Origin: an uncultured Clostridium sp.
GTDB lineage: Bacteria; Bacillota; Clostridia; TANB77; CAG-508
NCBI GenBank assembly: GCA_930980855.1
Contig: CAKNIZ010000001.1
Location: 87,198-151,197 of the forward strand
Length of the DNA stretch: 64,000 bases
Direction: 5' to 3'
The first letter of the stretch is position 1. Each line of letters opens with the position of its first letter. Both the position numbers and the translations under genes were made by a program. Below the pieces are notes generated by a model. The model made no database searches. It was not told the origin of the DNA and was given only the letters and a program-made list of their open reading frames with translations. This document shows, one piece after another, positions 2,556-49,182 of the stretch.

Positions 2556-2848
2556 TCTACCTCCATTATATATTGTTTACTATTTTTCGTCAACATTTTA
2601 AATTTATTTTGGGATTATCTTTAGAATTTTTGAAAATTATTGAATCAAAATTTTTTAGATATTATTTTTTATTTTACATCATTTTCTCTTATATCGCAAC
2701 AAAAATCGTACGTCAAATTATCTCATTTTTCGACAATCCATAGATTCTTTAATGTCGAAACAATTAACTATGTCAACGTCCATCATTATACTTGTCTTTC
2801 TTAAATTTTTGTTTTATAATTTTCTTATCTAATGAAAGGAGTGATTGT

Positions 2849-4958: not shown

Positions 4959-5825
4959 CTAAACAACTCCTAATAATATTAATACGAGTATTCCTAAAGC
5001 AATTCTATACCATCCAAATACTTTGAAGTCGTGCTTTTTTATGTAACTCATTAAGAATTTTATAACCAATATTGAAACCAAGAAAGCAACTGCCATTCCC
5101 ACTAATAATACCATTAATTCTGCTCCTGAAAACGCTAAACCAAATTTTAAAATTTTGAGCAAACTTGCTCCAAACATAACTGGTATTGCTAAGAAAAAAG
5201 TATATTCTGCTGCTACTGTTCTTGATACTCCTATTAGAAGAGCACCTATGATTGTTGCACCTGAACGTGATGTTCCTGGAAAAATTGCTGCTATTAATTG
5301 AAATATACCTATTATTAGTGCATCTCTATATGTTAGCTTATCTATTTCTGTAACTCTAGGCTTCATTCCTTTCTTTTTGTTTTCAATTATAATAAATGCT
5401 ATACCTACTACAATAAGCATTGTTGCTACAACCCATGAATTATATAAATACTTATTTAATATATCATCAAATAATAAACCTACTATTGCAGCTGGCACAC
5501 ATGCAACTAAAATTTTTGCCCATAAAATCAGTATTTTTTTGTCCCATACTATTTTTTTACCTGCTTTACTTTCTTTTGTTCTCAGTGGCCATATTTCTTT
5601 AAAATACAATAATACTACAGCTAATATTGCTCCTAATTGTATTACAACTTCAAACATATCAAAAAATCCTTCTGATAATCCTTGAAATTTCATAAAATTC
5701 TCTGCAAGTATTAAATGTCCTGTACTACTAATAGGTAGCCACTCTGTTATTCCTTCGATTACACCATATATTATTGAATAAACTATATTTAACATATCTG
5801 CCTCCATTTCTTTAAATTTATTCAA
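4959..5825 (-). CDS. uppP: undecaprenyl-diphosphatase
   Basis: The WLPISSTGHL motif and a polytopic membrane profile match UppP. Confidence 0.9.
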   Translation of the reverse strand: MNKFKEMEADMLNIVYSIIYGVIEGITEWLPISSTGHLILAENFMKFQGLSEGFFDMFEVVIQLGAILAVVLLYFKEIWPLRTKESKAGKKIVWDKKILILWAKILVACVPAAIVGLLFDDILNKYLYNSWVVATMLIVVGIAFIIIENKKKGMKPRVTEIDKLTYRDALIIGIFQLIAAIFPGTSRSGATIIGALLIGVSRTVAAEYTFFLAIPVMFGASLLKILKFGLAFSGAELMVLLVGMAVAFLVSILVIKFLMSYIKKHDFKVFGWYRIALGILVLILLGVV

Positions 5826-5931
5826 ATTTTTGTTATTTAGACTTTTTTATTCTAACATTTTTTTATAACTATTGTAAATATTTTTTTCTAATGTTATAAT
5901 CTTTTTAAATTTAATAATCAAGGAGAAATTT

Positions 5932-6687
5932 ATGGATATTTTAAAAAGATATGATTTTGATTTATTTAGTGAACCTCAAAGAAAGCCTCAAGTATATAGA
6001 AAGTCTCCTGGAGATATACCTATGAAAAAACGTGCAGTTAGAGCTAAAAAGAGGTCTATGATGAAACGTATTGCTGCTTTTTTAGCTGCTGGCACCCTTG
6101 TTCTAGGTACAATTCATTTAGTTAACCAATATAACAAAGTTCCTGAAGAAAGTGAAACCGTACATAATTACACAGCTTCATCAGATACTATTGAAAGTCA
6201 ATTAGAAAACCTTGCTGAAGATTTTTCTAATATTTCTAAAGAATCTAGCTCAGAAGATATTAATGCTTTTGCACATGAATTATATGATTTTAATATGACA
6301 TATTTAAAAAATAAGGTTTTAAATATATATAATTCTCAAGCGTATACTAAAGCTAATTCAGTTAAAGTTTTAAGATCTCTCGTAAATTCAAATGACCCAC
6401 ATCATGTATATACAGCTAATTTTTCAAATATATATGGTAATAAAGATAGAGTTATCTTAAGAGGTAATATTTTAGAACAAACTATGGATAATATAATAAA
6501 TCTTCAAGATTTTGATGTTTACCATGATGGTTTTAATTCATTGGAAAGAGCAGCAAACAGTACTTTTGCTACTTTAGGAAAAGATTTTATTATTTCTTAT
6601 GACACTGACAAAAATAGAATGACTTCTTATGAATTAGAAAAAGAGAATGATAAAACTTCTGAAAATAAAGAAGAAATGGACAGATAA
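5932..6687 (+). CDS. hypothetical membrane-anchored protein
   Basis: A basic N-terminus and a single TM are present. No known domain was recognised. Confidence 0.4.
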   Translation: MDILKRYDFDLFSEPQRKPQVYRKSPGDIPMKKRAVRAKKRSMMKRIAAFLAAGTLVLGTIHLVNQYNKVPEESETVHNYTASSDTIESQLENLAEDFSNISKESSSEDINAFAHELYDFNMTYLKNKVLNIYNSQAYTKANSVKVLRSLVNSNDPHHVYTANFSNIYGNKDRVILRGNILEQTMDNIINLQDFDVYHDGFNSLERAANSTFATLGKDFIISYDTDKNRMTSYELEKENDKTSENKEEMDR

Positions 6688-9073: not shown

Positions 9074-9490
9074 CTATTTTCTATTAATATAATTTTCTAA
9101 TATATATACTGCTGCAATAGTATCTACGACTGACTTTTTCTTTTTATTATTAATATTTAAATAATTCATTGTTTTATGTGCTTCTACTGTTGTAAGTCTT
9201 TCATCAACTGATACTATTTCAATATTATTAAACCTAGATTTAAGCTTATGTATAAAGCTTTCTGTTTCTTCAGTTCTTTTACTAGGTGTTCCATCCATAT
9301 TTAATGGATTTCCTATTACAAATGTATCAATATTATAAGTATTTAAAAGCTCTTCTAATCTTTTTAGTATAATTTTATCATTGCCATTTGAAGTAATTGT
9401 TTCTAGTCCTTGAGCAGTTATTCCTAGTTCGTCAGTTATTGCTATTCCAGTTCTGGCTATTCCATAATCTATTCCTAATTTTCTACTCAT
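9074..9490 (-). CDS. ruvX: Holliday-junction resolvase-like RuvX/YqgF
   Basis: [16 protein letters not shown] matches the N-terminal YqgF motif, and the gene sits directly downstream of ireB. Confidence 0.8.
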
Positions 9491-9737
9491 TTATATCTAT
9501 ATATTCCTTAACCATTTTTTCTAATAATTCATCTCTTTCAACTTGTCTTATAAGGTTTCTTGCTCCTTTATGGCTTGTTATATATGTTGGGTCTCCAGAT
9601 AGTATATATCCAACTATTTGATTTATAGGATTATATCCTTTTTCTTTTAGTGCATTATATACTTCTTTTAGTATTTCTTTTGCTCTTATGTTTTGTTCTT
9701 TTTCTACATCAAATTTAACTGTTTCGTCAATATTCAT
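9483..9737 (-). CDS. ireB: IreB-family regulatory phosphoprotein (UPF0297)
   Basis: The 84-aa ORF matches the conserved YrzL/IreB family and shows synteny with ruvX. Confidence 0.7.
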
Positions 9738-9747
9738 ACAATCCCTC

Positions 9748-10851
9748 CTATATACTTTTTATTGTATTTTCATTAGATGAATCTATGTATTCTTCTAACT
9801 TTTTAAAAGCTCCATCCAAAGATGTTCCTTTATAATATGTTGAAACTACCACTCTTATTTTAGGACTTACAACTACTTCCTCTTCTTCGTTTTCATGTAT
9901 ATAATCTTCAGCTGCTGTAATATTTAATTGTTCCATTTTCCCCTTCATATCCATCATAAAATTATATACACCATCTTTATCAGCGCCTGAAAAAACTATT
10001 GCAAATTTAGGCCCCATATATCTTACAAAAACATATTCTTTTGCTAAATTACTTTTCATAAAATTTGATAATGCAGTTATTACATGGTCTCCTGTTTTTC
10101 TGCTAATTTTTATATTTATATCTGGTAAATTAGTAATTTTAAATAAACAAATTGCTGAAGTTGTATATTTGTCTATAATCTTTTTTCCTTCTCCATATAA
10201 ATATTCTGCTGATTTTAAACCTGAATATAAGTCATCTCTAACAATATTTTCTATTGTAGCTTGATTTTCTACTGTTTTTAATATTGTCACTATATTGTTT
10301 CTTACTACTTCTAATATAGTTGTATCTATATGGTCAAACTCATGTGGCTTACTTCCCTCTATTATCCAATATCCTATGTAGACATTGTCTACATATAGAG
10401 GGAAGAATATTGCACATTTTGCTCTTCCAAATTCCATCTTTTGATATGGTAATTTTTCATTCTCGTTATCTACTGTTACATATTTAGGTGTTGCTGTTTT
10501 GATACTATCACCAAATACTGGATCATTTTGTAAATTCTTTAAGGTTTCCCAATGTTTTGTATCAACATTTGATGCTTTTACAACATATTGTGCACCGTCA
10601 AAAACTACTATTGTAGAATATTTTATTGAATATTTGCTTATTAATATATCATTAATATTTTCTAGTTTTTCTTTTATACTGGTAGTTTCTCCTAATGTCT
10701 TCATAAAATCTTGCAATACATTTAGGCTAGTTATTCTTTGGTTTAAATTACTATATGTTTCTATTTTTTTATGCACTGAATAATTGTATATTACCAAAGC
10801 TAAAACAATAATTACCAATATTGCTATAACTGATATTATCAAAAGTTTCAC
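9748..10851 (-). CDS. membrane protein with GAF-like region and degenerate GGDEF domain
   Basis: An N-terminal TM and DDLYSGL...GDHVITAL...[11 protein letters not shown] follow the GGDEF domain layout. The GG(D/E)EF motif is replaced by GPKFA. Confidence 0.5.
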
Positions 10852-17552: not shown

Positions 17553-17696
17553 CTTTTTCCCTTCTTTCTATTATACAAATATAATAGCATAAATAATTTC
17601 ACATATCTAGTTAATTTATAATTTTATTTTAAAATTTTGCATAAATCTTCATGTAATGCACATAATAGCAATATAATGAAAAAATTAGGAGGAAAA

Positions 17697-18245
17697 ATGA
17701 AAGCGACAGGAGTAGTAAGAAGAATAGATGATTTAGGAAGAATCGTTATTCCTAAAGAAATCAGAAAAACTTTGAGAATAAAAGAAGGCGACCCATTGGA
17801 GATTTTCACAGAAAAAGATGGTGATATAATTTTAAAGAAATATTCTCCAATTGGTGAACTTTCTAATTTTGCAACAGAGTATGTTGAAAGTTTGAATAAA
17901 ATCACTGGACATATTAGCATAATAACAGACAGAGATACAGTTATAGCAGTAGCAGGAACTCCAAAAAAAGATATATTGGAACAAAAAATAAGTAGTAGCC
18001 TTGAAAAAGTATTTGAAAATAGGCAAAAATTTATTGGTGACGGCAATAATTCTATTTTAATTACTGAAAAAGGCAATAGAGAAAAAGAAATGAATCCTCA
18101 AGTTATTGCTCCGATTATCTCTGATGGGGATGTTATAGGAAGTGTTGCTTTAATAAGCAAAGATTCCTCTTCAAAAATGAGCAAGACAGAAGAAGAAATT
18201 GTGTCTGTTGCAGCAGCTTTTTTAGGAAGCCAAATGGAAATATAA
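17697..18245 (+). CDS. spoVT: stage V sporulation protein T (AbrB-type DNA-binding plus GAF domain)
   Basis: MKATGVVRRIDDLGRIVIPKEIR is the AbrB/SpoVT swapped-hairpin motif. An AGGAGG RBS precedes the ATG at 17697. Confidence 0.85.
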   Translation: MKATGVVRRIDDLGRIVIPKEIRKTLRIKEGDPLEIFTEKDGDIILKKYSPIGELSNFATEYVESLNKITGHISIITDRDTVIAVAGTPKKDILEQKISSSLEKVFENRQKFIGDGNNSILITEKGNREKEMNPQVIAPIISDGDVIGSVALISKDSSSKMSKTEEEIVSVAAAFLGSQMEI

Positions 18246-18294: not shown

Positions 18295-18627
18295 TTATTT
18301 AATTTGTTCTAACTCAGAATAAATAATATCTATAACATTTTGCAATATGTCATTTGGTAAATTTTCTATTATTTGATATGTCCTACTATTTAAATCAAGT
18401 GCTTTTATATGTTCACATAGTATCACTCCAGTTGTTTTCGTTCTATTATCTAGCGGAACATGCAAAGGAAATTTATTATCTGTATTTGTGATTGGACATA
18501 CAATAGATAATCTGGTTTTTCTGTTAAATATATTATTACTTATAACGACTGCTGGTCTATAGCCTGCTTGCTCATGCCCTGATTGTGGATTAAAATTAAT
18601 TTTTATAATTTGTCCTTGTTCTACCAT
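18295..18627 (-). CDS. mazF: type II toxin MazF/PemK endoribonuclease
   Basis: GQIIKINFNPQSGHEQAGYRPAVVIS matches the PemK/MazF fold signature. Confidence 0.85.
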   Translation of the reverse strand: MVEQGQIIKINFNPQSGHEQAGYRPAVVISNNIFNRKTRLSIVCPITNTDNKFPLHVPLDNRTKTTGVILCEHIKALDLNSRTYQIIENLPNDILQNVIDIIYSELEQIK

Positions 18628-18893
18628 ATTTCCTCTCCTTTAGGCTCTCCCCAATCAATTTCTATTGGTTCATAATCATCTTTATAATCTTGAAATAATT
18701 CTTTTATGTTTTTTCTCTTATGTTGATTTGCTTTTTCTAAAATTAATTTTCCTTTATCAATAACAATTATAATTTGTTCATTTTCTGACCATTCAACACT
18801 GTCTAAAAGTGCTTTGGGTATTCTTATTCCTTGACTATTTCCCCATTTTTGAATAGTTGTTGTCATTTTACCATCTCCTTTTTGTATATACAT
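18621..18893 (-). CDS. mazE: antitoxin MazE/PemI (AbrB-fold)
   Basis: WGNSQGIRIPKALL is a swapped-hairpin motif, and the ORF overlaps the mazF start. Confidence 0.75.
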   Translation of the reverse strand: MYIQKGDGKMTTTIQKWGNSQGIRIPKALLDSVEWSENEQIIIVIDKGKLILEKANQHKRKNIKELFQDYKDDYEPIEIDWGEPKGEEIW

Positions 18894-19070: not shown

Positions 19071-20639
19071 ATGAGTAAATATTATGTTACTACTCCTATA
19101 TATTACCCAAGTGGTAAGTTTCATATAGGCACTGCTTACACAACAGTTTTAGCAGATTTTTTAAAAAGATATAAAGCGCTTCAGGGATATGATACTTACA
19201 TGCTAACTGGTACTGATGAGCATGGTCAAAAAATCCAAGACAAAGCAAAAGAATGTAACTTATCTCCTAAGGAATATGTTGATATACAAGCAAATATTGC
19301 AAAAGAATTATGGGCTAAAATGAAAATTGATTATAATAAATTTATAAGAACTACTGATGAATATCATGTAAAAGCAGTTCAAGAAATTTTTGAAAGATTT
19401 TTAAATCAAGGCGATATTTATAAAGGAGAATATGAAGGCTGGTATTGTAAGCCTTGTGAATCATACTTTACTGAAACACAATTAGTAGATGGAAAATGTC
19501 CTGATTGTGGCAGAGAAGTTATCAAAATGAAAGAAGAAGCATATTTCTTTAACATGAAAAAATATGCAGATAAATTATTAAAATATTATGATGAACATCC
19601 AGATTTTATTGTTCCAGAATACAGAAAACAAGAAATGATAAACAACTTCATAAAACCTGGTTTGGAAGATTTATGTGTTACAAGAACATCTTTTGATTGG
19701 GGTATTAAAGTTGAAAGTGACCCTAAACATGTTATTTATGTTTGGTTAGATGCTCTTACAAATTATCTAACTGCACTTGGTTACTTATCTCAAGACGATT
19801 CTTTATTTAATAAGTATTGGCCAGCAGATGTACATTTAGTTGGAAAAGATATTGCTAGATTCCATTTAATTTATTGGCCTATATTCTTAATGGCATTAGA
19901 TTTACCATTACCAAAAACTATTTTTGTTCATAACTGGTTTATGATGAAAGATGGTAAAATGTCTAAATCTAAAGGAAATGTAATCTATCCAGATCAATTA
20001 ATTGATAAATACGGATTAGATGCTACTAAATATTTCTTATTAAGAGAATTACCTTTATCTCAAGATGGTCTATTCTCTCCAGAAGGTTTTGTAGAAAGAT
20101 ATAACTACGATTTATGTAATGACTTAAGCAATTTACTTAACAGAACAGTTTCAATGGTTAATAAATATTTTGATGGGCATGTTCCAGAATATGTTGGAAC
20201 ACCTAATGAAGTAGATTCAGAATTAGAAAAAGCTTCTGAAGATGTTATAACTAACTTTACAAATTTAGTCGATAAATTTGATATTGCAAATACTATTCAA
20301 GCTATTTGGAACTATGTTGCTAGAACAAATAAATATATAGATGAGACTTCTCCTTGGGTTTTAGCTAAAAATGAAGAAGATACAGAAAAATTAAAATCTT
20401 GTATGTATCATTTAGTTGCAAATCTTAGAGAAATTGCAATTCTAATCACACCTTTTATGTTTGAAACATCTCAAAATATGTTAAGACAATTAGGTATTTT
20501 AAGTGACATTACTTGGGATAGTTTAAAAGAATACAAAGATATAAAGAATGTAAAAGTTATTGAAAAAGGTGAACCTATTTTCATGAGATTAAACGCTGAA
20601 GAAGAAGTTCAATATATAAAAGATTTAATGAAGAAATAA
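19071..20639 (+). CDS. metG: methionine--tRNA ligase (short form)
   Basis: PIYYPSGKFHIGTAY is the HIGH-like motif, KMSKSKGN is the KMSKS motif, and the CPDCG zinc knuckle is present. Confidence 0.9.
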   Translation: MSKYYVTTPIYYPSGKFHIGTAYTTVLADFLKRYKALQGYDTYMLTGTDEHGQKIQDKAKECNLSPKEYVDIQANIAKELWAKMKIDYNKFIRTTDEYHVKAVQEIFERFLNQGDIYKGEYEGWYCKPCESYFTETQLVDGKCPDCGREVIKMKEEAYFFNMKKYADKLLKYYDEHPDFIVPEYRKQEMINNFIKPGLEDLCVTRTSFDWGIKVESDPKHVIYVWLDALTNYLTALGYLSQDDSLFNKYWPADVHLVGKDIARFHLIYWPIFLMALDLPLPKTIFVHNWFMMKDGKMSKSKGNVIYPDQLIDKYGLDATKYFLLRELPLSQDGLFSPEGFVERYNYDLCNDLSNLLNRTVSMVNKYFDGHVPEYVGTPNEVDSELEKASEDVITNFTNLVDKFDIANTIQAIWNYVARTNKYIDETSPWVLAKNEEDTEKLKSCMYHLVANLREIAILITPFMFETSQNMLRQLGILSDITWDSLKEYKDIKNVKVIEKGEPIFMRLNAEEEVQYIKDLMKK

Positions 20640-36475: not shown

Positions 36476-37684
36476 TCATTTATTAAAAAAATCATCTATT
36501 TTCTCTATTTCTTTCTCTTTAAATTCATTAAACACATCTGTATATGTATTTAATGTTACTTGTATGTCTTTATGCCCTAATATTTTTTGAAGAACTACTG
36601 GACTAACTCCATTTTCTATACATCTAGTTGCAAATGTATGTCTTAGCATATGTGTATTTACTCTACTTTTTGTCATATCAAATTCATATACTTTTTTTAT
36701 TTTTCTTCCACTTTTTATGCTTGATCTTTTTTTATATACTCTAATATCTGCATTTTTACATAGTTTTTGAAATCTAGCATTAAAATTAGTAGCATGTATA
36801 AAACTTCCATTTTTCAAAAATAGAAATCCCTTTTTCTTATCTATTTTATATTCAATTAATTTATCGTACAGTACATTTAATATTGGCACATCTCTCATCC
36901 CTGCATAAGTTTTTGTTGTTTTTTCTAATAAAATTCTTCCTTTATCTACATGACTAAGTGTCTTTCTTACATATATTTTTTTATTTTCAAAATCTAGATC
37001 TTCCCTTTTTAGTGCCAAAATTTCACTTATTCTCATTCCTGTATAAATAGCTATATAAAATACAATAGTATAATCATCATATCCTTTATCTAACTCATTA
37101 ATAAATCTTTCTTGTTCTTTTATAGTCAATGCATCTACTTTTTTAGTTGCTTTATTAGACTTTGGTTTCATTAAATATCCTTTTAGTTCAAACGGATTTT
37201 TTTCTACAATATTCCTAATCCTCGCTTCATTGAATGCTCCTTGTAATTGTTGCCATACTTTGGTTATTACAGATTGTGAATATGAAACTAATACTTGGCT
37301 TTGAGAATTTATTATACTTCTTGTAACATTTTGAATTGGAATATTAGCATAGGGTAAAAGCTTTCTCATTATATCGATGCTTTCTCCTATTCTTATGTAT
37401 GATGCTCTTTTTATAGAATTAGTTTTATATTTTAGTTCTCTTATTTCTTCAGCTATATCTACTATTGATAAAGTATTGCCAACATCTTTCCCTGTTTGTT
37501 TTTCTCTTTGTAATAAATCTAATTTTTCTTTTACTTCTTTTCTTGTATCTCCATAAAATGTTTTTCTTATTTGTTTTCCATCTGAATTAACTCCTAAAGT
37601 AATTTGTCCTACCCATTTTTTCAATTTTTCTCTATAAAATATTGTTCCTTCTCCATTTCCTCTTTTACTTAAATTTCTTCCCAT
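36476..37684 (-). CDS. int: tyrosine recombinase/integrase, Tn916 Int-like
   Basis: The N-terminal KRGNGEGTI matches the Int-Tn DNA-binding domain. The C-terminal HMLRHTFAT...LGH...Y catalytic motifs are present. Confidence 0.9.
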   Translation of the reverse strand: MGRNLSKRGNGEGTIFYREKLKKWVGQITLGVNSDGKQIRKTFYGDTRKEVKEKLDLLQREKQTGKDVGNTLSIVDIAEEIRELKYKTNSIKRASYIRIGESIDIMRKLLPYANIPIQNVTRSIINSQSQVLVSYSQSVITKVWQQLQGAFNEARIRNIVEKNPFELKGYLMKPKSNKATKKVDALTIKEQERFINELDKGYDDYTIVFYIAIYTGMRISEILALKREDLDFENKKIYVRKTLSHVDKGRILLEKTTKTYAGMRDVPILNVLYDKLIEYKIDKKKGFLFLKNGSFIHATNFNARFQKLCKNADIRVYKKRSSIKSGRKIKKVYEFDMTKSRVNTHMLRHTFATRCIENGVSPVVLQKILGHKDIQVTLNTYTDVFNEFKEKEIEKIDDFFNK

Positions 37685-37711
37685 ATTTTCTCCTTTTCCT
37701 TAAATTGAAGA

Positions 37712-37969
37712 TCAGACAAATAATTGCTTTGCTATTTTTTCAAGTAGTACTTTTTTAGTTTCATCATCTGTGCAAAACTCATGAATAAATACTGCTCTTT
37801 TATCTGCAATAAGATTAGCTCCACAATTTTTAATTAAAGGAAAATTTAAACTATGAAATCTCTCCCTTGCCTTTACTATTCCTATTCCTCTCCAGTCCGA
37901 ATATATTTCTGGAGTAATTGTATCTGGCAAATCTTCAAATTTAATATTTGATTTTTTTACTTTCATCAA
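37712..37969 (-). CDS. small protein immediately upstream of int (positional excisionase candidate)
   Basis: Only position supports this. No recognisable Xis motif was found. Confidence 0.3.
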   Translation of the reverse strand: MMKVKKSNIKFEDLPDTITPEIYSDWRGIGIVKARERFHSLNFPLIKNCGANLIADKRAVFIHEFCTDDETKKVLLEKIAKQLFV

Positions 37970-38110
37970 ACCCTCCTATCTAAAATAGCTAGTCTTTGAT
38001 ATAATCAAAGACTAGCTGATTTTTTATTATTTTTGAAATGTATAAATCTTACTTTTCCACACTTGACACTATAATAATATTTTTATTTAAACATTATCTT
38101 CTACAAATCA

Positions 38111-38480
38111 TTACTTCTTATTTAATAAAATCTCTGCATATTGTTCTGCCTCTTTTTTAGAATGTAATTCTTGTAAAGGCTCATAAAACATTTGCATATT
38201 TTTTATATTTACTTCATTTGCAGAATTTAATAAATTATGTAATGCAATTAAACCGTATGAAACAACTTGTTTCCAATTATATGTTTTTCTTTCCATCATA
38301 ACCTCCAAAATTTTTTCTATTTATTTTCTTTTCTTGATATTCGTTCAAATATTTAATTTGTTCTTCATCCTCTAATTCTTGTTCTTCTGGTGTCTTTCTA
38401 CTTCCACCTATAATAATTAGAATTAAAGGTAGTCCTATTAATATAAAAATTAATGTAGCTATTGAAATAATATCTAACAT
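38111..38480 (-). CDS. two overlapping small ORFs (65 and 67 aa), one with a TM helix
   Basis: ORFs 38111-38308 and 38277-38480 occupy the position of Tn916 orf5. Confidence 0.25.
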
Positions 38481-38908
38481 TTCTTTTGCCTCCAGTTTTC
38501 TAATTAGGGCTATTGGGGGAATAACCCTAATTAAGATATTATTATTTTCTTACTTTTCCCATTTGTCAGACTGCTATTGTTTCTAGCAACATTGGAATTT
38601 CACCAACCAGAACTCTGGCTTGTACTCATTGCGTGTGACGCACCATTATAAAAGTATTATGGACTACCTTTATAACTTTACGCTCGTGCTGTGACTATAC
38701 AAAAGTTTCTTAAGCTGCATTCACAATAAGATAACATTCCTATTGTTAATTTAGATGGTCGCTACCCCACCTAAAACGCAACTCTTGTATGATCCAACAA
38801 ATACATTATTCAATTTTCAATGTGCAATCCATACCAGAAGTTTTTTACACTTCTACTATGAACAGCACTTGAAAACGAAAAAGGTTACGATTTTTTTTAT
38901 AAATTTTT

Positions 38909-39121
38909 TTATTTAGCCAATTTTTCTGCAAAATTTCCTTCTTTTACTACACTAATTGCGTATTCAATTAAAATACTTTTTAAATCTTGATCTATAACAT
39001 TTCTTTCATTTAATGAATATTTATCAATGAGAGGCATTATTTTTCCTATTACTAAAATCATTGATACTTCATCTGTTCTAGCTTTTACTAATATCTCATA
39101 AAACCTTGTTCTATTTTTCAT
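38909..39121 (-). CDS. small regulatory protein, Tn916 Orf8-position
   Basis: The 70-aa ORF overlaps the end of the sigma-like gene. Confidence 0.35.
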   Translation of the reverse strand: MKNRTRFYEILVKARTDEVSMILVIGKIMPLIDKYSLNERNVIDQDLKSILIEYAISVVKEGNFAEKLAK

Positions 39122-39530
39122 GATCGTCCTCCATATATTTTTTTAAATTATTTATTGCTCTTAATTTCAATTGTTTTACTGCATTTTCGTTTATATTCAT
39201 TTCTTCAGCAATAACTTTTATTTTTTTATTTTCATAATAGTATTTAACTATCACTTTCCTTTGATTTTCATTTAATTTACTTAAAGCAAACTTTAAATCG
39301 TTTTTACTAAAAAAAGAATGGTCAGAATTCCCCCTATTAGATAACTCTTTCCATTCTTCATTTGACATAGATATTTCCTTTTCTAATAAATATTTTTTAT
39401 GTCTTAAATAGTTTAGTCGCCTGTTTAATAAAGCCTTTCTCATATAATTTATGTATCTTGCAAATACAATATCATTTGAAAACTCTTTTTCTTGATATAT
39501 ACATTTTTCGTCAATATCCTTTCTTTTCAT
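39111..39530 (-). CDS. sigma-70 region-4-containing small sigma-like factor (Tn916 Orf7-like)
   Basis: The C-terminal LSKLNENQRKVIVKYYYENKKIKVIAEEMNINENAVKQLKLRA is a sigma region 4 HTH. Confidence 0.6.
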   Translation of the reverse strand: MKRKDIDEKCIYQEKEFSNDIVFARYINYMRKALLNRRLNYLRHKKYLLEKEISMSNEEWKELSNRGNSDHSFFSKNDLKFALSKLNENQRKVIVKYYYENKKIKVIAEEMNINENAVKQLKLRAINNLKKYMEDDHEK

Positions 39531-39919
39531 TTTCTATCTCCAATCTTTTAGATTGGACAAATGCCTGAAAAATCAAAGAAAGTTATTAACTTATCTTTTT
39601 ATTTTCTATTTAATTATTACCCCATATTTAATACCTCCCCATAACAAAAATCTGTAAAATACTACAGCATATTTTTTAGCATCTTTTGAATCTTATTTTT
39701 TATCTACTGTGCTTTAATATACTTCCTTCAATTTTACAGACTTCTGTCCTAGAAAAAAGCATATACTCTTTTTTCTAGTTTGTCATAGAATCAGCAAAAA
39801 TACGCACAAATACGCAAAAATCAGCTTTTTTTGTCGAACAATTAGGAGGTTATATAACCAATGGTTATTTGTTCTTTCTTATGGTAAAATCTGTATATCA
39901 TTATTAGGAGGGTTTTATT

Positions 39920-40651
39920 ATGTTTAAAATCATAATTGCCAATAATAATGATATTTTTTACAACAGCTTATCTAATATTCTTTTGCAAAATGAACTAAAT
40001 ATTGAACTAATGAAAGTACCACCAAACAAGTTAGGAAAACTAATTTGTAAAATCAAGCCAAAAGATAATGTAATAATATTGGACTCAAACACTTCACTTA
40101 CATTTTGTAGAAATGTATTGAAGAATGCAATGGAAAATGTAGATACTAAAAAAGTGAATATCATTATTTTGGTAGTCGACTCTAATAGCATATCCAATAT
40201 TAAATACGAATACCATTATCACTTTTTCAAAACTTCTAATCATACAAGCTTACTTGATATTGTAAAACTGGTGTCTGATTCATTAAAAGATTGTTTAGAA
40301 ATAGAAAAATCAATTAATGATTTATTAAATAGTCTTGGATTTACTTATTATTTTAAAGGAACTATTTATTTGAAAGATGCAATTCAATTTGCATATATTG
40401 AACGAAATTTATTATATGATACAAAAACACTTGTGAAAAAGGTTGCAAAAAGACATAAAATAAAAAACGATAGAATTGTTCGTTCTGATATGGATAGAGC
40501 CTTAAATAGTATGCTAACTTATATTGAAAAAGATAAGATTTACAATATTTTTGGAAAACATTATGATGGAAGAATAATTAGTTTAAAATATTTTATTGAC
40601 CTGTGTATTCGATATTTAGAAGAACAACGATATTGCTGTTTAGAAAATTAA
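39920..40651 (+). CDS. pseudo-receiver protein with Spo0A C-terminal-like DNA-binding domain
   Basis: The C-terminal half (GFTYYFKGTIYLKDAIQFAYIE...VAKRH..NDRIVRSDMDRAL...IFG) follows the Spo0A_C effector domain pattern. The N-terminal half is receiver-like but has IIIANNND in place of the acidic pocket. Confidence 0.55.
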   Translation: MFKIIIANNNDIFYNSLSNILLQNELNIELMKVPPNKLGKLICKIKPKDNVIILDSNTSLTFCRNVLKNAMENVDTKKVNIIILVVDSNSISNIKYEYHYHFFKTSNHTSLLDIVKLVSDSLKDCLEIEKSINDLLNSLGFTYYFKGTIYLKDAIQFAYIERNLLYDTKTLVKKVAKRHKIKNDRIVRSDMDRALNSMLTYIEKDKIYNIFGKHYDGRIISLKYFIDLCIRYLEEQRYCCLEN

Positions 40652-40801
40652 AATAAGGAACTCCCCTCTTAAAAGTAGTTCCTTAAAAATAAAGTGTTAG
40701 TGCTAAATGTTTGAACTACATTTAGCACACTTTTATGGGTATTCAATGCAAACCATTTTATCAAAATTATAATTTCTTTCAAACCACTTATGTGCTTTTT
40801 G

Positions 40802-42731
40802 TTAGTATAATGTATCATCCTTTAACATATCCACAATATTTTTGTTCAAAATCTTTTTTCCACCAATATAATAAGCTATACTTACTGCTAATAAAATAAA
40901 TATTATATAGCAAAGTATTGGTATTATAGGCATATTATTTATATAATCAGACAATAATATTTGACTAGCGTTTAAAAATAATAAAACAATCGGAACATTT
41001 ATTATTAGGCTTATTATAATAGGTTTTAAACTTATTATTAATGCCTCATAAGTTAAAATCTTTTTTATACCTTTGCGTGATAATCCAATAGACATATATC
41101 TAGCAAATTCTCTTTTTCTTAAAGAAATTTGTGATATACAGTTTGAAAATACATTTACAATTCCAATCAATGCAAGAATTCCTGCTAAAGTCCAAATTAT
41201 AATTCTTAATCCGCTTCTTATATTCTTGTCAGAAGTCTCTTCTTGTATTCTATTTTGTATTTGATATTCAATTCCAGTAATTTTCTGTTCAATTTTATTT
41301 TGTATATCATATATTTCTGATATATTATTAATTTTTACATTAAAATATGTAGGATTATTCATCATATTACTATTAATTTTATTAGCATAACTTTCACTAA
41401 TTATTAAAACTAATTCGCATTCATATCTATTATATTCTTCTTTTAGATTAGGTAATTCTTGTGCATAATTTGTTATATATATAGTATATTTCTGTGATTC
41501 ATTATTTTTCTCAAATATTTCTAATTTTAAATTGTCTATTTCTTGTAAATATGGGATGTATTCTCCTTTTAAATTGTGATTCTTACTTTTCCATATCTTA
41601 TTTATTGCAACGCATTTTTCTTGTGCAGATAAATTACTACCGTTATTATTTTGCAAAGAATTATAATATCCATCAAAACTTACGTCGTCTAATATTATAA
41701 TTGGAATACCTATTTGATATTTTCCATTTTCATTCTCAGTAATATTCTCACTAATTACATCTAACCCACCTGCTACATTTAGTTCATTACTAAAGTATGT
41801 AGAATCTATTTCAGCATAAAAAGTACATTTTTTATAATTAATACATTCTTTAATTCCAGCCATATCTCTTATTTCTTGGGTAAGTTCATTTCTATTATTC
41901 ATATCTGGCATTTGGAACATTATATCCCATTTATCCCTATATCTTTCAAAGAATGTTTTATTAGTTGATAAATCTGATACTGTTTCAAAATTTAGAAATG
42001 TAATTAAAGCTAATGATGAACAAATAAATGCTCTTGTTGCTGTACGAAAACTTTTTTTTCGTGAATATATTGACTTCCTTGCTATTTCTCCTTCTATTCC
42101 AAAAATTTTAGAAAAAATCATAAATTTTTTCATTTTTTTAACTTTTGTATCATCTCTATAGAATATTGCATCCATAACTGAAACTTTAGCAATTTTTCTT
42201 GCAGGAATAGTCGCTGATATCCAAACTGTTATAAAAGAAATAGCAGCAGAAATAATAGCAACTAAAATATTATATCTAAAATATAGTTCAGAATCTCTTG
42301 CAAGCTCTGTTGCTTTAATTATAAATTGCATAAGAATATATGTTGCTACTATACCCAACAAGGTTCCGAATTACGATTGGAACTAAACTTAAAATTATAA
42401 CTTCATACCTTAATATTTGCTTAATTTGTTTTGGCGTTGCCCCTACACTTTTTAAAATTCCTAATTGATGTAATCTTGAATTCATTGACATAGCAAAAAT
42501 ATTATATATCATTAAGATTAACGAAAACATTGCCATAAATAATATAAATAGAAATGCAAAGATTTCCACTGTTGTTTGGGTTTGTCCTCTAGCAATATTA
42601 TCGGCATATAGATTGTAAAATATTCCTGTCAATAATGAAAGGAGCAATGAAGCAAGAAATGAAGTTATTGCTATTGAAACACTTGTTGTTTTATTATTTC
42701 TTATATGATTTATAACATATTCTTTTATCAT
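40802..42731 (-). pseudogene. BceB-type ABC permease (FtsX), frameshifted (ORFs 42315-42731 and 40802-42361)
   Basis: Ten TMs and a large extracellular loop are typical of bacitracin/lantibiotic-type permeases. Removing one base in ATTCGG (plus 42366-42373) joins ...VPIVIGTLLGIVATY... Confidence 0.7.
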
Positions 42732-42743
42732 TACATTACCTCC

Positions 42744-43423
42744 TTATCTTATATACTCATCTGATATAATTTTTCCATCTTCTATTCTAATGATTCTGTC
42801 TGCTTGTAAAGCTATGTTTTCATCATGTGTTATTAAAATTAAAGTCTGATTATATTTTTTATTGGAATACTTTAAAATTTCAATAATTTCTTGTCCATTT
42901 TTCTTATCAAGATTTCCAGTAGGTTCATCAGCCAAAATAATAGATGGTGCATTTATAAGAGCCCTACCGAATCGCAACTCTTTGTTGTTGACCACCAGAT
43001 AATTGATTTGGAAAATGTTTTTTTCTATTACTTAATCCTAACATATCTAGAAGTTCATTAACTCTATCTTCATTTATTTTTTGTTTATCTAATTTAAGTG
43101 GTAAAACCATATTTTCATAAACATTTAATATTGGTATTAGATTATAAAATTGATAAATAAGTCCAACATTGCGACGTCTAAAAATAGCAAGTTCTTCTTC
43201 ACTTTTTGTATATATTTCTTTTTTATCTACATAAATTTTACCGTGAAGTAGGAATGTCTACACCTCCCAACAAATGTAAAAGTGTTGATTTTCCAGAGCC
43301 AGATTGCCCTACTATTGCCACAAATTCTCCTTTTTTAACAGAAAAAGAAACATTGTTTAAAGCCACAACTTCATTTTCTCCTTTATAAATTTTAGTTAAG
43401 TTTTCAACTTTTAATATTTCCAT
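42744..43423 (-). pseudogene. BceA-type ABC ATPase with two frameshifts
   Basis: An N-terminal fragment with Walker [10 protein letters not shown] and a C-terminal fragment with ILADEPTG are in different frames. The middle translates to LSGGQQQRVAI in a third frame. Each break is resolved by removing one base in NNCGG. Confidence 0.7.
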
Positions 43424-43538
43424 ATAGATTACCTCCTAAATTTAATATAACACAAGTTTAGTGACACATCCGTGACTTTATTATTACAAATATGTCACTT
43501 TTAAATAAATATAAAAAACGAAACATTATGACTTCACA

Positions 43539-44555
43539 TTATGCTTCGTTAAAAAATTTAATATTAAATTCTGCACCTTTGTTTTCTCTATTTTTGGCAG
43601 TAATAACTCCATTTTGTTTTGAAACAATCATTTTAGTAAGGTACAGTCCAATTCCTATACCTTCACTACCACTATTGTTTCCTCTATAAAATCGCTCAAA
43701 CAAATGTGGTAAATCCTCTTTACAAATTCCTTTTCCCTCATCAGTTATAATTATTTCTGTATATATCGGATTGGTTTCTGATATAATTTCTATAATACCT
43801 CCATTTTCCGAATGTTCTATACAATTCTTTATTATATTTGAAATAGCTTCAACTGACCAATAATAATCTCCTTTATAATTCGTATTTTTTTCTATTTTTA
43901 ATTTCATTTTGATATTTTTGATTTCAGCTTGAATTTTTAACGGTTCTAATGATTTATTTACAACTTCTTCAACATTTGTTTTTTCTTTTTTTAACTTTAC
44001 AGTATCAGATTCCAATTGAGCTACTTTTAATAATGCTGTAATAAGCCACTCAATTCTTGTTAATAACTTACTTATTTCTTTTATCATTTTTAATCGATCT
44101 TCAAAAGTTAACTCCTGTCTTGATAATCTCGATATCATTATATTTATGGAAGTCATTGGAGTTCTAATTTGATGTGATATATCTGCTAAATAATCTTTCA
44201 AATAATTTTTTTCGTTTTCTAACCTTTCTGTTTGTTCCCTTAATCTAACTGTCATTTTATAAATTTCACTATTCAGAACTGCAAGTTCTCCCTCTTTATT
44301 CACATCAAAATTTGTATAATCATTATTATGTAATATTTTATCTATTTTATAAGTTAATTCACTAATATCATTATATCTTTTTTTCGTAAAGAATAACGAA
44401 ATAAATTCAATGACTAAACAAACTAATATAATATATATTGAGCAAATAATATTAATAAATAATGCTCCCAAAAATACAATAGTATTAAATATAACATATA
44501 TAATTATCTGTTTTTTTATTTCTTCATTTCTAAAAAGACTCATAACATTCTCCAA
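43539..44555 (-). CDS. intramembrane-sensing histidine kinase (BceS-like)
   Basis: Two closely spaced TMs with a minimal loop, a HisKA box (SHQIRTPM) and HATPase_c are present. Confidence 0.85.
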   Translation of the reverse strand: MENVMSLFRNEEIKKQIIIYVIFNTIVFLGALFINIICSIYIILVCLVIEFISLFFTKKRYNDISELTYKIDKILHNNDYTNFDVNKEGELAVLNSEIYKMTVRLREQTERLENEKNYLKDYLADISHQIRTPMTSINIMISRLSRQELTFEDRLKMIKEISKLLTRIEWLITALLKVAQLESDTVKLKKEKTNVEEVVNKSLEPLKIQAEIKNIKMKLKIEKNTNYKGDYYWSVEAISNIIKNCIEHSENGGIIEIISETNPIYTEIIITDEGKGICKEDLPHLFERFYRGNNSGSEGIGIGLYLTKMIVSKQNGVITAKNRENKGAEFNIKFFNEA

Positions 44556-45216
44556 TTTTATAACCTATTCCTCTAACTGTTTTTATTATAATAGGATTTG
44601 TAGGATTATCTTCTATTTTTTCTCGTAATCTTTTTATATAAACAGTTAAAGTATTATCATTAACAAATTCTCCTGCAATATCCCAAATTTCTTCTAGTAA
44701 TCTACTTCTAGACATAATTTCTCCCTGATGATTTATAAATAGTAAAAGTAATTTATATTCTAAAGCTGTCAATACAACTTCTTTGTCATTCTTTGATACA
44801 CTACCTTTTATAGTATCTACCTTTAAATTTGTAATTTTAAAAACTGATGGAGATTTTTTATATCTTCTTAATTGATTTTTTATTCTTGATATGAGTTCTA
44901 AAGGCTTAAATGGTTTTGAAATATAATCATCAGCACCAACATCGAAACCTGTTACAATGCTATACTCATCTTTCATTGCTGTAAGTATAATAATCGGAAT
45001 ATCAATTTTCTTTTTTATTGAATTACAAATGGAAAATCCATTTCCATCTGGCAATATTAAGTCTAATAAGATTAAATCAAATTTATTTTTTTCCAACATT
45101 TTTTCTAGTTCTGATTGTTTAGATATCGATTCTATAGAAAATCCATTCTCTTTAAGTAAAAGAGTTAAATTTTCAGTTATTTCTTTGTTATCTTCCACTA
45201 TTAAAATATGATTCAT
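44530..45216 (-). CDS. OmpR-family response regulator (BceR-like)
   Basis: A receiver domain (ILIVEDNKE...LLDLILPDGNG) and a winged helix (GIGYKI) are present. Confidence 0.9.
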   Translation of the reverse strand: MNHILIVEDNKEITENLTLLLKENGFSIESISKQSELEKMLEKNKFDLILLDLILPDGNGFSICNSIKKKIDIPIIILTAMKDEYSIVTGFDVGADDYISKPFKPLELISRIKNQLRRYKKSPSVFKITNLKVDTIKGSVSKNDKEVVLTALEYKLLLLFINHQGEIMSRSRLLEEIWDIAGEFVNDNTLTVYIKRLREKIEDNPTNPIIIKTVRGIGYKIGECYESF

Positions 45217-45254
45217 ATCATTTTTTCCACCTTTATTTATTACTTCTTATTTTT

Positions 45255-45818
45255 TTACTTTTTTAAGCATATTTCTAATATCTTTCTCATAGTATTAGCT
45301 GTTCTTATTGTTATTGAATTACTAATTTCTGTACTTGCTGTTTTACTCCACCAATTTGATTTCCTATAATTTTTTAAATCAAAAGACCAAAAAATATTAT
45401 TTTTATATTCTTGTATTTTTTCATATTCATTTGGAGAACCTATTGCAGCAAATACTTCTTTATAAGTAGTCGGTGGAATAATAAATATTATATTATCATA
45501 TATCTCTTTATTATCTTTTCCCCACCATTCTGGACTATTACTCATCAATTCTTCTAATTCCTGTGAAGTTGTAACATAAGTTGGTATATCAAATTCAAAT
45601 TTATCTTTTATCATTATTTGTATATTATTTATAATTTCATTTTTATTATTTATATTACTTTCAAAAATTATATTGCCACTATTTAGATAAGTTGTTACTT
45701 CTTTAAATCCTAAATTGGTAAATTCTTTTTTTAATTTGCTCATTGCAATTTTGTTTTTTCCACTAATATTTATTCCTCTCAATAATGCTATATATTTCAT
45801 AATACTTCTCGCTTTCAA
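45255..45818 (-). CDS. DUF1697 family protein
   Basis: MKYIALLRGINISGKNKIAMSKLKKEF...SGNIIF matches the DUF1697 N-terminal signature. Confidence 0.65.
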   Translation of the reverse strand: MKARSIMKYIALLRGINISGKNKIAMSKLKKEFTNLGFKEVTTYLNSGNIIFESNINNKNEIINNIQIMIKDKFEFDIPTYVTTSQELEELMSNSPEWWGKDNKEIYDNIIFIIPPTTYKEVFAAIGSPNEYEKIQEYKNNIFWSFDLKNYRKSNWWSKTASTEISNSITIRTANTMRKILEICLKK

Positions 45819-45895: not shown

Positions 45896-46417
45896 TTATA
45901 TTGTTGATAGTATAAAAGCAATAAAATTTGCAACGAATGGGATAATCATACACAAAGCCCACAATAATAAGTTTTTATCATTAGTTTGTTTATATTTATA
46001 AAAATATACAACTGCTGAAAATCCAAATAATAAAGTTGTGTAGCCAGAACATTCTAAATCTTTAATAAGAGAATATACAATAATAATTGTAATTGTTAAT
46101 AATATAAATACAGTTCCAATAGTAACACTTTTATAGTGATTGAACTCTGATAATTTTATAAGATTTTCTTCTGACTTTTCTTTTATTTTATCTTCTGGTA
46201 TTTTTTCACCTGATAAAATATCATTTACACTAACATTTAATATTTCACTTAATGGTTTTAAAAGCGACATATCCATTAAGCAAATTCCTCTTTCCCACTT
46301 GCTAACTGCATTTTTGCTTATATTTAATCTTTCTGCTAATTGCTCTTGAGTTAGTTTTTTATCTTTACGACAACTTGCAATAAATTGACCTATTTTTACT
46401 TTATCCATACTTACCAC
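45896..46417 (-). CDS. XRE-family HTH regulator with C-terminal TM segments
   Basis: LTQEQLAERLNISKNAVSKWERG is an HTH motif, followed by three hydrophobic helices. Confidence 0.7.
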   Translation of the reverse strand: MVSMDKVKIGQFIASCRKDKKLTQEQLAERLNISKNAVSKWERGICLMDMSLLKPLSEILNVSVNDILSGEKIPEDKIKEKSEENLIKLSEFNHYKSVTIGTVFILLTITIIIVYSLIKDLECSGYTTLLFGFSAVVYFYKYKQTNDKNLLLWALCMIIPFVANFIAFILSTI

Positions 46418-48732: not shown

Positions 48733-49182
48733 TCATTTTTCTCTACAAAATAATTTTTCGATAACATCTGCCTGCTCTCTTGTTATTCTTCCATTTATTA
48801 TTGCCAGTCCAAGTAGTGCTCGTATATTTTCCCACTTCATGCATCTACATCTTCCTTGTGCTGTTTGTTCTATATATTCTAATATTTCTTCTGCTATATA
48901 GTTTGGCACTATAAAGTTTTTAGTAATTTTTTCCATTATTTTACACCTCTGATATATTTTACTGGTTATACAGCCAATAGTCAAGTAACATACTAAACTT
49001 ATATAATTATTTATATTAAGAGCACTAAAGATTCTTTCAACAGCGATTTCGCTACTAGGTAAGTCGTTAGTTATAGAAAAATCTAAAATATGTTTACCTT
49101 CAAAATTAATGGCACAAAAATAGTTACTGGCAGAGCTAACATCAATGCCTACAAACAAAGTAGATAAAACATCTTTATTCAT
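48733..49182 (-). pseudogene. IS110-family transposase N-terminal fragment fused to unrelated sequence
   Basis: LFVGIDVSSASNYFCAI is the IS110 DEDD-domain start. Similarity is lost after about 70 aa, and there is no C-terminal domain. Confidence 0.45.

Follow-up and report, generated by a model that had tools for sequence, protein, structure and literature searches.

In the integrative and conjugative element (ICE) Tn916, orf9 lies opposite orf7, orf8, xis and int, and its product, Orf9, is the divergent repressor of Porf7 (PMC5812530). We describe here the gene that occupies this slot in a conjugative element of an uncultured Clostridium sp., contained in a 64,000-nucleotide stretch of contig CAKNIZ010000001.1 (assembly GCA_930980855.1); this stretch, analysed as a whole, is called the window and provides the coordinates given below. 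The gene, termed S0AC, encodes a paralogue of the sporulation regulator Spo0A; like orf9, it diverges from an operon of orf7-like, orf8-like, putative xis and int genes and converges with the cargo. Orf9 is an Xre-type helix-turn-helix (HTH) protein, whereas S0AC combines a Spo0A_C domain with a degenerate receiver, an unrelated fold. The likeness of the two regulation modules is one of gene order, and the genes of the window called sig7 and orf8-like open reading frame (ORF) are matched to Orf7 and Orf8 by position. The conjugation genes differ as well: Tn916-type modules have an FtsK-like coupling protein and a Rep_trans relaxase, whereas the module of the window element is of the VirD4/MobA-relaxase type. 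We propose, with a probability of roughly 0.55, that S0AC, in the orf9 slot, regulates the element that carries it by binding an array of phased boxes beside the promoter of the divergent operon, with input from phosphorylated host Spo0A (Spo0A~P) through an adjoining 0A box.

Spo0A binds tandem boxes about 10 bp apart, as at abrB and in the structure 1LQ1. S0AC shares with Spo0A its two-domain layout, a homology detectable over the full length and the fold of the effector domain; it differs in its score (28 versus 200 bits) against a model of true Spo0A proteins, in an Asn-Asn pair in the receiver, a short linker and another recognition helix, and in its location on a mobile element rather than the chromosome. 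Atypical receivers with degenerate phosphorylation residues, thought to be constitutively dimeric and active, are known from HP1043 and ChxR. S0AC likewise joins a receiver-like fold with degenerate residues to a DNA-binding domain, but the output domain of HP1043 and ChxR is of the OmpR type and chromosomally encoded, whereas that of S0AC is Spo0A_C and borne on a mobile element. Phage phi29 is said to sense host Spo0A through 0A boxes, reportedly described by Meijer, Salas and colleagues in 2005. In common with phi29 are 0A boxes in the early regulatory region, by which host Spo0A~P would decide the element's development; phi29, however, is a lytic phage without a Spo0A paralogue, whereas the window element is conjugative or integrative and encodes a paralogue predicted to bind beside the box.

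The Spo0A_C domain has been treated in surveys as unique to Spo0A and as a marker of sporulation capacity (PMC6136694), and some Clostridiales carry two or three spo0A paralogues (preprint 10.1101/2022.02.25.481979). Human-gut phages carry effector-only spo0A homologues, for which a role in manipulating sporulation has been suggested (Schwartz et al. 2023, PMC10294663). These resemble S0AC in placing Spo0A_C on a mobile element of spore-formers from the gut and in lacking the usual phosphorelay input; S0AC differs in keeping a conserved pseudo-receiver, and the evidence presented here points to self-regulation of the element, not to control of host sporulation. A further class of elements intervenes in sporulation genes: skin in sigK, SPbeta in spsM and gin in gerE (PMC4191935, PMC5595907, PMC5025042). 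Serine-recombinase relatives of the window element similarly split the mother-cell gene cotJC, whereas the window element itself has a tyrosine integrase and does not lie in a sporulation gene. To our knowledge, no Spo0A-like regulator has been described for the known sporulation-gene-intervening elements. Literature searches on Spo0A_C, on Spo0A-like regulators of mobile elements and on Tn916 with Spo0A returned no description of the S0AC family, and none of a pseudo-receiver Spo0A paralogue in an element's regulator slot, of the phased operator or of an adjoining conserved 0A box.

Domains and family of S0AC

The gene and its two domains are as follows.

39920..40651, plus strand: S0AC, Spo0A paralogue gene, 243 residues (ORF list, sequence, homologues, full-length hhalign to Spo0A)
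39920..40285, plus strand: degenerate receiver domain, residues 1–122, with N8 and N9 at the acidic pair and D55 kept (hhalign, family conservation, AlphaFold2)
40313..40615, plus strand: Spo0A_C-type DNA-binding domain, residues 132–232, with a predicted recognition helix at residues 184–201 (Pfam, Foldseek, predicted secondary structure)

S0AC starts with an ATG codon preceded by a strong ribosome-binding site, AGGAGG, at 39906–39911. Its C-terminal domain is a member of the Spo0A_C family: residues 132–232 score 34.7 bits with Pfam Spo0A_C (PF08769; E 1.9e-8), above its gathering cut-off of 25, and the predicted fold of the domain is that of the Spo0A effector. In an AlphaFold2 model based on 40 members of the family, the mean predicted local distance difference test (pLDDT) score is 77, with values near 90 for the C-domain and near 70 for the N-domain; the only significant Foldseek matches of the model in the PDB are the Spo0A effector domain structures 1LQ1 and 1FC3, with template modelling scores by target of 0.81–0.89 and root-mean-square deviations of 1.8–2.9 Å over about 110 columns. 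Both the profile match and the predicted fold thus bear out the preliminary description, made from the sequence alone, which had recognized a Spo0A effector-type domain in this protein and for which an unrelated fold would have been the adverse outcome. S0AC is not an orthologue of Spo0A, as judged from its receiver residues, its recognition helix and the Spo0A equivalog model TIGR02875, which it matches with 28.4 bits against a cut-off of 200 and over residues 120–212 only. The linker is short, giving a protein of 243 residues compared with about 267 in Spo0A. Pfam finds no HTH_3 domain in S0AC, whose Spo0A_C fold is unlike the Xre/HTH_3 type of Orf9; PADLOC reports no defence-system match for it, and a PHROGs search returned only two weak families, both of unknown function.

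The N-terminal half was described beforehand as receiver-shaped but devoid of the acidic pocket, and profile comparisons agree. Pfam Response_reg (PF00072) has no match in S0AC, even at E<=10, and phmmer aligns the protein to the Rcp1 receiver with an E of 3.5e-4. With hhalign, the alignment of the family profile with four true Spo0A proteins extends over 233 columns (probability 98.2%, E 4e-14), and the N-domain alone aligns to the Spo0A receiver (probability 91%, E 1e-6); relatives of about 240 residues with canonical receivers are matched with a probability of 100% (E 2e-41). The window's own OmpR-type regulator, entered as a single sequence only, gave an uninformative 0.4%. By sequence comparison, the N-domain is homologous to receiver domains, and 'pseudo-receiver' is a fair description of it. 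In B. subtilis numbering, D10/D11 correspond to N8/N9 and D56 to D55, which is invariant in the family, while the acidic-pair region of other members reads ANDND, TNDND, AEGND or AIDND. K106 corresponds to K104, only partly conserved in the family. T84 corresponds most likely to V85, its counterpart when close canonical relatives are aligned without gaps; the gapped alignment to Spo0A gives S88 instead. Strong conservation is seen at D55, S56, S59, the ND motif and residues of helix 1. The model has four strand-helix units in the N-domain, from a strand at 2–7 to a helix at 88–93, and a pLDDT below 50 for residues 95–107, where the fifth strand is expected. Because the metal-binding acidic pair is lost, S0AC probably works without phosphorylation.

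The S0AC family comprises at least 198 homologues of uniform length (230–255 residues; 49–95% identity), all from metagenomes or metagenome-assembled genomes (MAGs) of uncultured gut Clostridia; a copy of 100% identity is found in the chicken-gut MAG Candidatus Scatovivens faecipullorum. The ratio of nonsynonymous to synonymous substitution rates (dN/dS) is 0.29–0.58 for the N-domain and 0.13–0.40 for the C-domain, the more strongly conserved of the two. Since both ratios are below 1, both domains are functional and, given the many homologues of uniform length, S0AC is more than a chance ORF; purifying selection and uniform length also rule out a decaying pseudogene. The family is neither plasmid- nor phage-borne in the collections searched: no near-identical DNA of the locus and no family member by protein search were found among plasmids, none among IMG/VR viral contigs, and phage records gave a single weak match of 25% identity.

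A search of 1.84 billion representative proteins extended the family to many relatives of about 230–250 residues that match over the full length. The nearer ones (P0124, P0138, P0140) have degenerate receivers, as in the window protein, and others, including P0128, P0131, P0143 and P0149, have canonical receivers of the pattern DD...D...S/T...KP, with Response_reg scores of 52–65 bits (65 bits in P0128, which occupies the same slot). The distant canonical relatives P0143 and P0180 are chromosomal and outside this module, so not every short Spo0A-like regulator is element-borne. The most abundant family member, P0083, is present on 305 contigs. It bears the NCBI name 'sporulation transcriptional activator Spo0A [Clostridium sp. 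CAG:269]', which is likely a mis-annotation; it has a degenerate receiver, a mobile-element location and a Spo0A_C score of 24.6 bits, just under the cut-off of 25. Two further relatives, P0132 (439 residues) and P0133 (454 residues), consist of four tandem Spo0A_C domains without a receiver (Pfam 398 bits, 4 stretches), and their recognition helices are close to that of true Spo0A. In the element of the canonical-receiver relative at locus L049, a second, receiver-less Spo0A_C protein of 206 residues is encoded at 9276–9896 of that locus, with a 461-residue sigma-r4 protein downstream.

The regulatory region and its proposed readers

The intergenic region between S0AC and sig7 was aligned over 36 non-identical loci, across which its architecture is fixed; the 0A box was counted over 35 related loci. 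From the sig7 side to the S0AC side, it contains the following features.

39734..39752, no strand assigned: conserved box TTACAGACTTCTGTCCTAG (also given as TTACAGACTnTTGTCCTAG) at the predicted sig7 transcript start, in nearly all loci, including the distant L049 and L054
39749..39778, no strand assigned: perfect inverted repeat of 11 nt that covers spacer and −10 of P_sig7 (sequence and locus alignment)
39758..39786, minus strand: predicted sigma-A promoter P_sig7 (ATGACA, 17 bp spacer, TATGCT), facing the sig7/xis/int operon (consensus scan)
39789..39828, plus strand: four 10-bp-phased direct repeats, AATCAGCAAA, AATACGCACA, AATACGCAAA and AATCAGCTTT, the candidate S0AC operator (locus alignment)
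39829..39838 (core TGTCGAA at 39832–39838), plus strand: perfect extended 0A box TTTTGTCGAA (motif search, locus alignment)
39880..39890, plus strand: extended −10 TATGGTAAAAT of the predicted promoter of S0AC itself (by eye; not flagged by the consensus scan)

P_sig7 is near-consensus (−10 TATGCT or TATGAT), and the consensus scan recovered it independently of the alignment. Its −35, ATGACA on the minus strand, reads TTGTCAT on the plus strand (39780–39786), and the −35 and −10 region are conserved across loci. In place of the inverted repeat at 39749–39778, most other loci have AAAATCAT-ATA-ATGATTTT; this −10 palindrome shares an AATCA core with the phased boxes. The latter follow the consensus AATCRGMAAA, that is AATC[A/G]G[A/C]AAA, with the G/C core TCRG conserved at the 10-bp phase. 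The array abuts the −35 of P_sig7, spans −38 to −78 and is the only triple phased match to the position weight matrix in the 64 kb window; locus L028 has two boxes fewer with the phase kept.

The preliminary description had suggested a search for 0A-box-like motifs in the regulatory region of the ICE, and a perfect one is present. TGTCGAA serves as the Spo0A core site in Clostridia as well: in C. difficile, spo0A and sigH have boxes at −75 and −78 (PMC3485338). The core stands at the same place in 26 of the 35 related loci, and no other block of the region is as conserved. Its distance from the −35 is exactly 51 bp in 20 of 22 loci and 31 bp in L028, and the S0AC intergenic site accounts for 26 of the 53 occurrences of TGTCGAA in 485 kb of locus sequence. 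Over the whole window the motif is not enriched (4 found, 2.2 expected), so the significance of the box lies in its cross-locus conservation only. It lies at about −84 of P_sig7 and about −62 of S0AC's own, and it is separated from the last phased box by 13 bp rather than 10, out of phase with the array. Downstream follow 40–60 variable bases and then the extended −10, tatggtaaaat, which is conserved in most loci about 30 nt before the ribosome-binding site. A near-palindrome, AACCAATGGTT, at 39858–39868, in the −35 position of S0AC's own promoter, is common to a subset only (the window, L007, L008, L011, L012 and the P0083 type). A search of 37900–41000 against Rfam gave nothing above chance, so no known RNA element explains the conserved intergenic boxes.

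The recognition helix sets S0AC apart from Spo0A. It is SRVERAIRHAIEVAW, invariantly, in true Spo0A and DRIVRSDMDRALNSML in S0AC; in either alignment register, R217 becomes D192 and H218 becomes R193 (R/K193), and E213/R214 become V187/R188 or R188/S189 depending on the register, so that three or more polar positions facing the DNA are changed. Of the two registers, the ungapped helical one (V187 = V212) agrees better with the predicted helix 184–201. Because the polar residues of the helix differ, a specificity identical to that of Spo0A is unlikely. The boxes vary with the helix: loci with the helix VR[T/V]NMDRxLG (P0083 type, L027) have AAATAYACA boxes instead of AATCRGMA, and since both sig7 clades include such loci, box type goes with the paralogue rather than with sig7. 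P0128, with the helix AVRSAIDKS, has AAAGTCGGAA three times, one copy reading TGTCGGAA, and 10-bp arrays accompany P0124 and P0149 as well. The 0A box, by comparison, is unchanged across helix variants, L027 included, and absent in the standard-helix loci L018, L031, L036 and L046. Because it is kept across helix variants, its pattern fits a non-varying reader, for which host Spo0A is the obvious candidate. One recombinant locus, L016 (535–4726, compared with 36476–40651 of the window), is 95–100% identical to the window from int to sig7 and, from about 39580 of the window onward, only about 58–75% identical in the regulatory region and the paralogue; since this breakpoint exchanges the regulatory region and the gene together, the operator travels with the paralogue as a cassette.

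From these patterns we infer which protein reads which site. S0AC would bind the four phased 10-bp boxes at 39789–39828 head to tail through its Spo0A_C-type HTH and, sitting beside the −35, would gate the P_sig7 operon of sig7, the orf8-like ORF, putative xis and int; it would probably also control its own promoter. Host Spo0A~P at TTTTGTCGAA would feed in, tying excision and transfer to the transition state or the onset of sporulation, and read-through from the convergent cargo and transfer genes would be antisense to S0AC, as in the Tn916 model. As to the sign of control in the integrated state, repression is predicted only slightly ahead of activation; we lean to it because P_sig7 is near-consensus, its −10 lies within a palindrome that has the same AATCA core as the boxes, and repressors of the Orf9 and ImmR types occupy this slot.

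Several points weigh against this proposal. A box array just upstream of the −35 is typical of activators and could mean the opposite sign. The co-variation of helix and boxes is confounded by physical linkage and shared descent, and sig7, the orf8-like ORF or the HTH_3 protein encoded nearby could read the boxes or the palindrome. Nine of the 35 loci have no 0A box, the most abundant type, P0083, among them, and the host's own Spo0A was not seen in the data examined. Finally, D55 is invariant and one Asp of the pair is kept in several members (ANDND), which may mean that phosphorylation occurs in some of them.

A more far-reaching version of the proposal is tentative. Spo0A~P and S0AC might occupy a hybrid operator side by side and time excision and transfer, so that members splitting cotJC would restore it in the sporulating cell; the family might then have evolved from control by phosphorylation (canonical receiver, as in P0128) to control by the host regulator (pseudo-receiver with a 0A box).

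Among the alternatives, it is unlikely that S0AC reads only TGTCGAA or the palindrome, while the boxes are read by sig7, the orf8-like ORF or the HTH_3 protein, or act mainly as an UP element or bent DNA. The boxes are indeed A-rich and occupy −38 to −78 of P_sig7, where an UP element would be expected, other DNA-binding proteins are encoded nearby, and the association of helix and boxes could be linkage only; but box type does not track the sig7 clade, TCRG cores at a 10-bp phase exceed what an A-tract needs, and relatives carry the same kind of array with their own core sequences.

Quite improbable is the role assigned to S0AC in the preliminary description, that of a decoy or mimic which reads the 0A boxes of element and host, competes with or replaces Spo0A and alters sporulation or Spo0A-controlled genes. 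The Spo0A_C fold, the perfect 0A box adjoining the gene and the resemblance of the family boxes [A/G]TCGGAA to GTCGAA, with the repeat TGTCGGAA in a canonical relative, would all suit such a role, as would the effector-only homologues of phages, for which manipulation of sporulation has been proposed (PMC10294663). The mimic is weakened by a helix in which, whichever register is used, no fewer than three polar residues depart from those invariant in Spo0A, by a 0A box that is present or absent regardless of the helix variant, unlike the phased boxes, which track it, and by the spacing of 13 bp that puts the 0A box out of phase with the array; the fixed slot and the inheritance of operator and gene as a cassette fit an element-specific regulator with a candidate operator of its own. 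If the element is coupled to sporulation, host Spo0A acting on the element is more likely than S0AC acting on host 0A boxes.

The least probable alternative, that the pseudo-receiver pairs with the Spo0A receiver or titrates kinases, phosphatases or inhibitors, with DNA binding secondary, could draw on an N-domain homologous specifically to the Spo0A receiver, under purifying selection and with conserved residues (D55, S56, S59, the ND motif, helix 1) that suggest a functional surface, but the stronger conservation of the C-domain, the conserved cis-architecture and the cassette inheritance point to a function at the level of DNA, and the loss of the acidic pair speaks against a phosphate sink.

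The element, its relatives and its host

S0AC lies inside a conjugative element, whose gene order from left to right is int, putative xis with small ORFs, the 70-residue ORF and sig7, all on the minus strand, followed by S0AC on the plus strand. The Tn916 orf9-like position given in the preliminary description therefore holds, with S0AC diverging from the sig7, 70-residue ORF, putative xis and int operon. Its neighbours are listed below.

36476..37684, minus strand: tyrosine integrase (Pfam Phage_integrase, 92.6 bits)
37712..37969, minus strand: 85-residue putative excisionase (Xis), assigned by position only; no Pfam match
38909..39121, minus strand: 70-residue ORF after sig7, orf8-like by position, conserved in 22 of the loci retrieved; no Pfam match
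39111..39530, minus strand: sig7, a 139-residue Sigma70_r4 protein, orf7-like and divergent from S0AC (Pfam)
40700..40728, plus strand: terminator-like hairpin 3' of S0AC
45896..46417, minus strand: HTH_3 and DUF6442 regulator (Pfam), with a homologue directly after the S0AC gene in L023

A plasmid protein search with sig7 matched only C. tetani sigma factors. Since the HTH_3 homologue of L023 directly follows the paralogue gene, the cargo at 40802–45818 looks inserted between S0AC and the HTH_3 gene. Besides a fragmented Bce-like ABC transporter, it comprises genes for a histidine kinase, an OmpR-type regulator and a DUF1697 protein. The part at 40802–43423 (minus strand) looks decayed, with the Bce-like ABC ATPase in three ORF pieces, which carry Walker A, signature motif and Walker B, and the FtsX permease in two; the splits are either frameshifts or assembly errors. 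Beyond the HTH_3 protein, up to the window end, past which the element continues, lie CHAP, sortase, VirB4-like, PrgI, VirD4, relaxase, NikA/MobC and Toprim genes, with the conjugation functions assigned by Pfam (VirD4-type T4SS-DNA_transf, MobA/VirD2 relaxase, NikA/MobC, PrgI, VirB4-like); cargo and transfer genes are convergent with S0AC. A 149-residue ORF at 48733–49182 (minus strand), whose match to the model of the IS110 DEDD transposase is confined to positions 1–40 of that model, is likely a transposase remnant inside the element.

The arrangement is shared by the relatives. An alignable, divergent sig7-like ORF of 116–164 residues (mostly 139–148) is present in 29 of 34 related loci, about 400 bp from the S0AC gene, and is followed by an orf8-like ORF and then a recombinase; tblastn with the window's sig7 confirmed it in 18 loci. 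This recombinase is a tyrosine integrase in some loci and of the large serine type in others. Many serine-recombinase elements, that of P0083 included, abut a cotJC fragment beside cotJA-cotJB, and cotJC is also split by another element, in which the same slot holds the canonical-receiver protein P0128. Such cotJC-splitting relatives with large serine recombinases are L001, L002–L006, L017, L025, L026, L032, L038 and L049; they are flanked by Mn_catalase fragments, with cotJA-cotJB adjacent, and in L001, where the fragments are at 5626–6111 and 19525–19731, the element measures about 13 kb. On this arrangement they are candidate sporulation-gene-intervening elements, and in the literature search cotJC did not appear as a known target of such elements.

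The window element itself is located upstream of an M50 peptidase gene, outside any sporulation gene. On the chromosome to its left lies spoVT (17637–18242, plus strand; Pfam SpoVT_C 147 bits, and a tblastn match), already noted in the preliminary description; because spoVT is present, the host lineage is taken to be a spore-former. The sporulation genes cotJABC and SPL occur in related loci. Next to spoVT is a MazE/MazF toxin-antitoxin pair (18295–18893, minus strand). Farther left, between an Rpn-family nuclease gene and deoD, an inverted pair of TGTCGAA motifs 24 bp apart (2729–2735, minus strand; 2753–2759, plus strand) may be a Spo0A site of the host.

Meaning for mobile elements of spore-formers

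The significance of S0AC rests on conserved architecture, read from sequence. A 0A box and a Spo0A paralogue on an operator of about 100 bp could give mobile elements of spore-formers a concrete route to sense the sporulation decision of the host. The family suggests that mobile elements keep at least some of their spo0A homologues as regulators of their own, not as tools for hijacking sporulation. S0AC-type paralogues, sometimes named Spo0A in databases, as is P0083, can inflate Spo0A_C counts in gut metagenomes. The relatives with a canonical, half-degenerate or fully degenerate acidic pair form a natural series of receiver degeneration, from DD through ND to NN in one genomic slot, useful for studying phosphorylation independence, and cotJC looks, from the related elements, like a gene that intervening elements target repeatedly.

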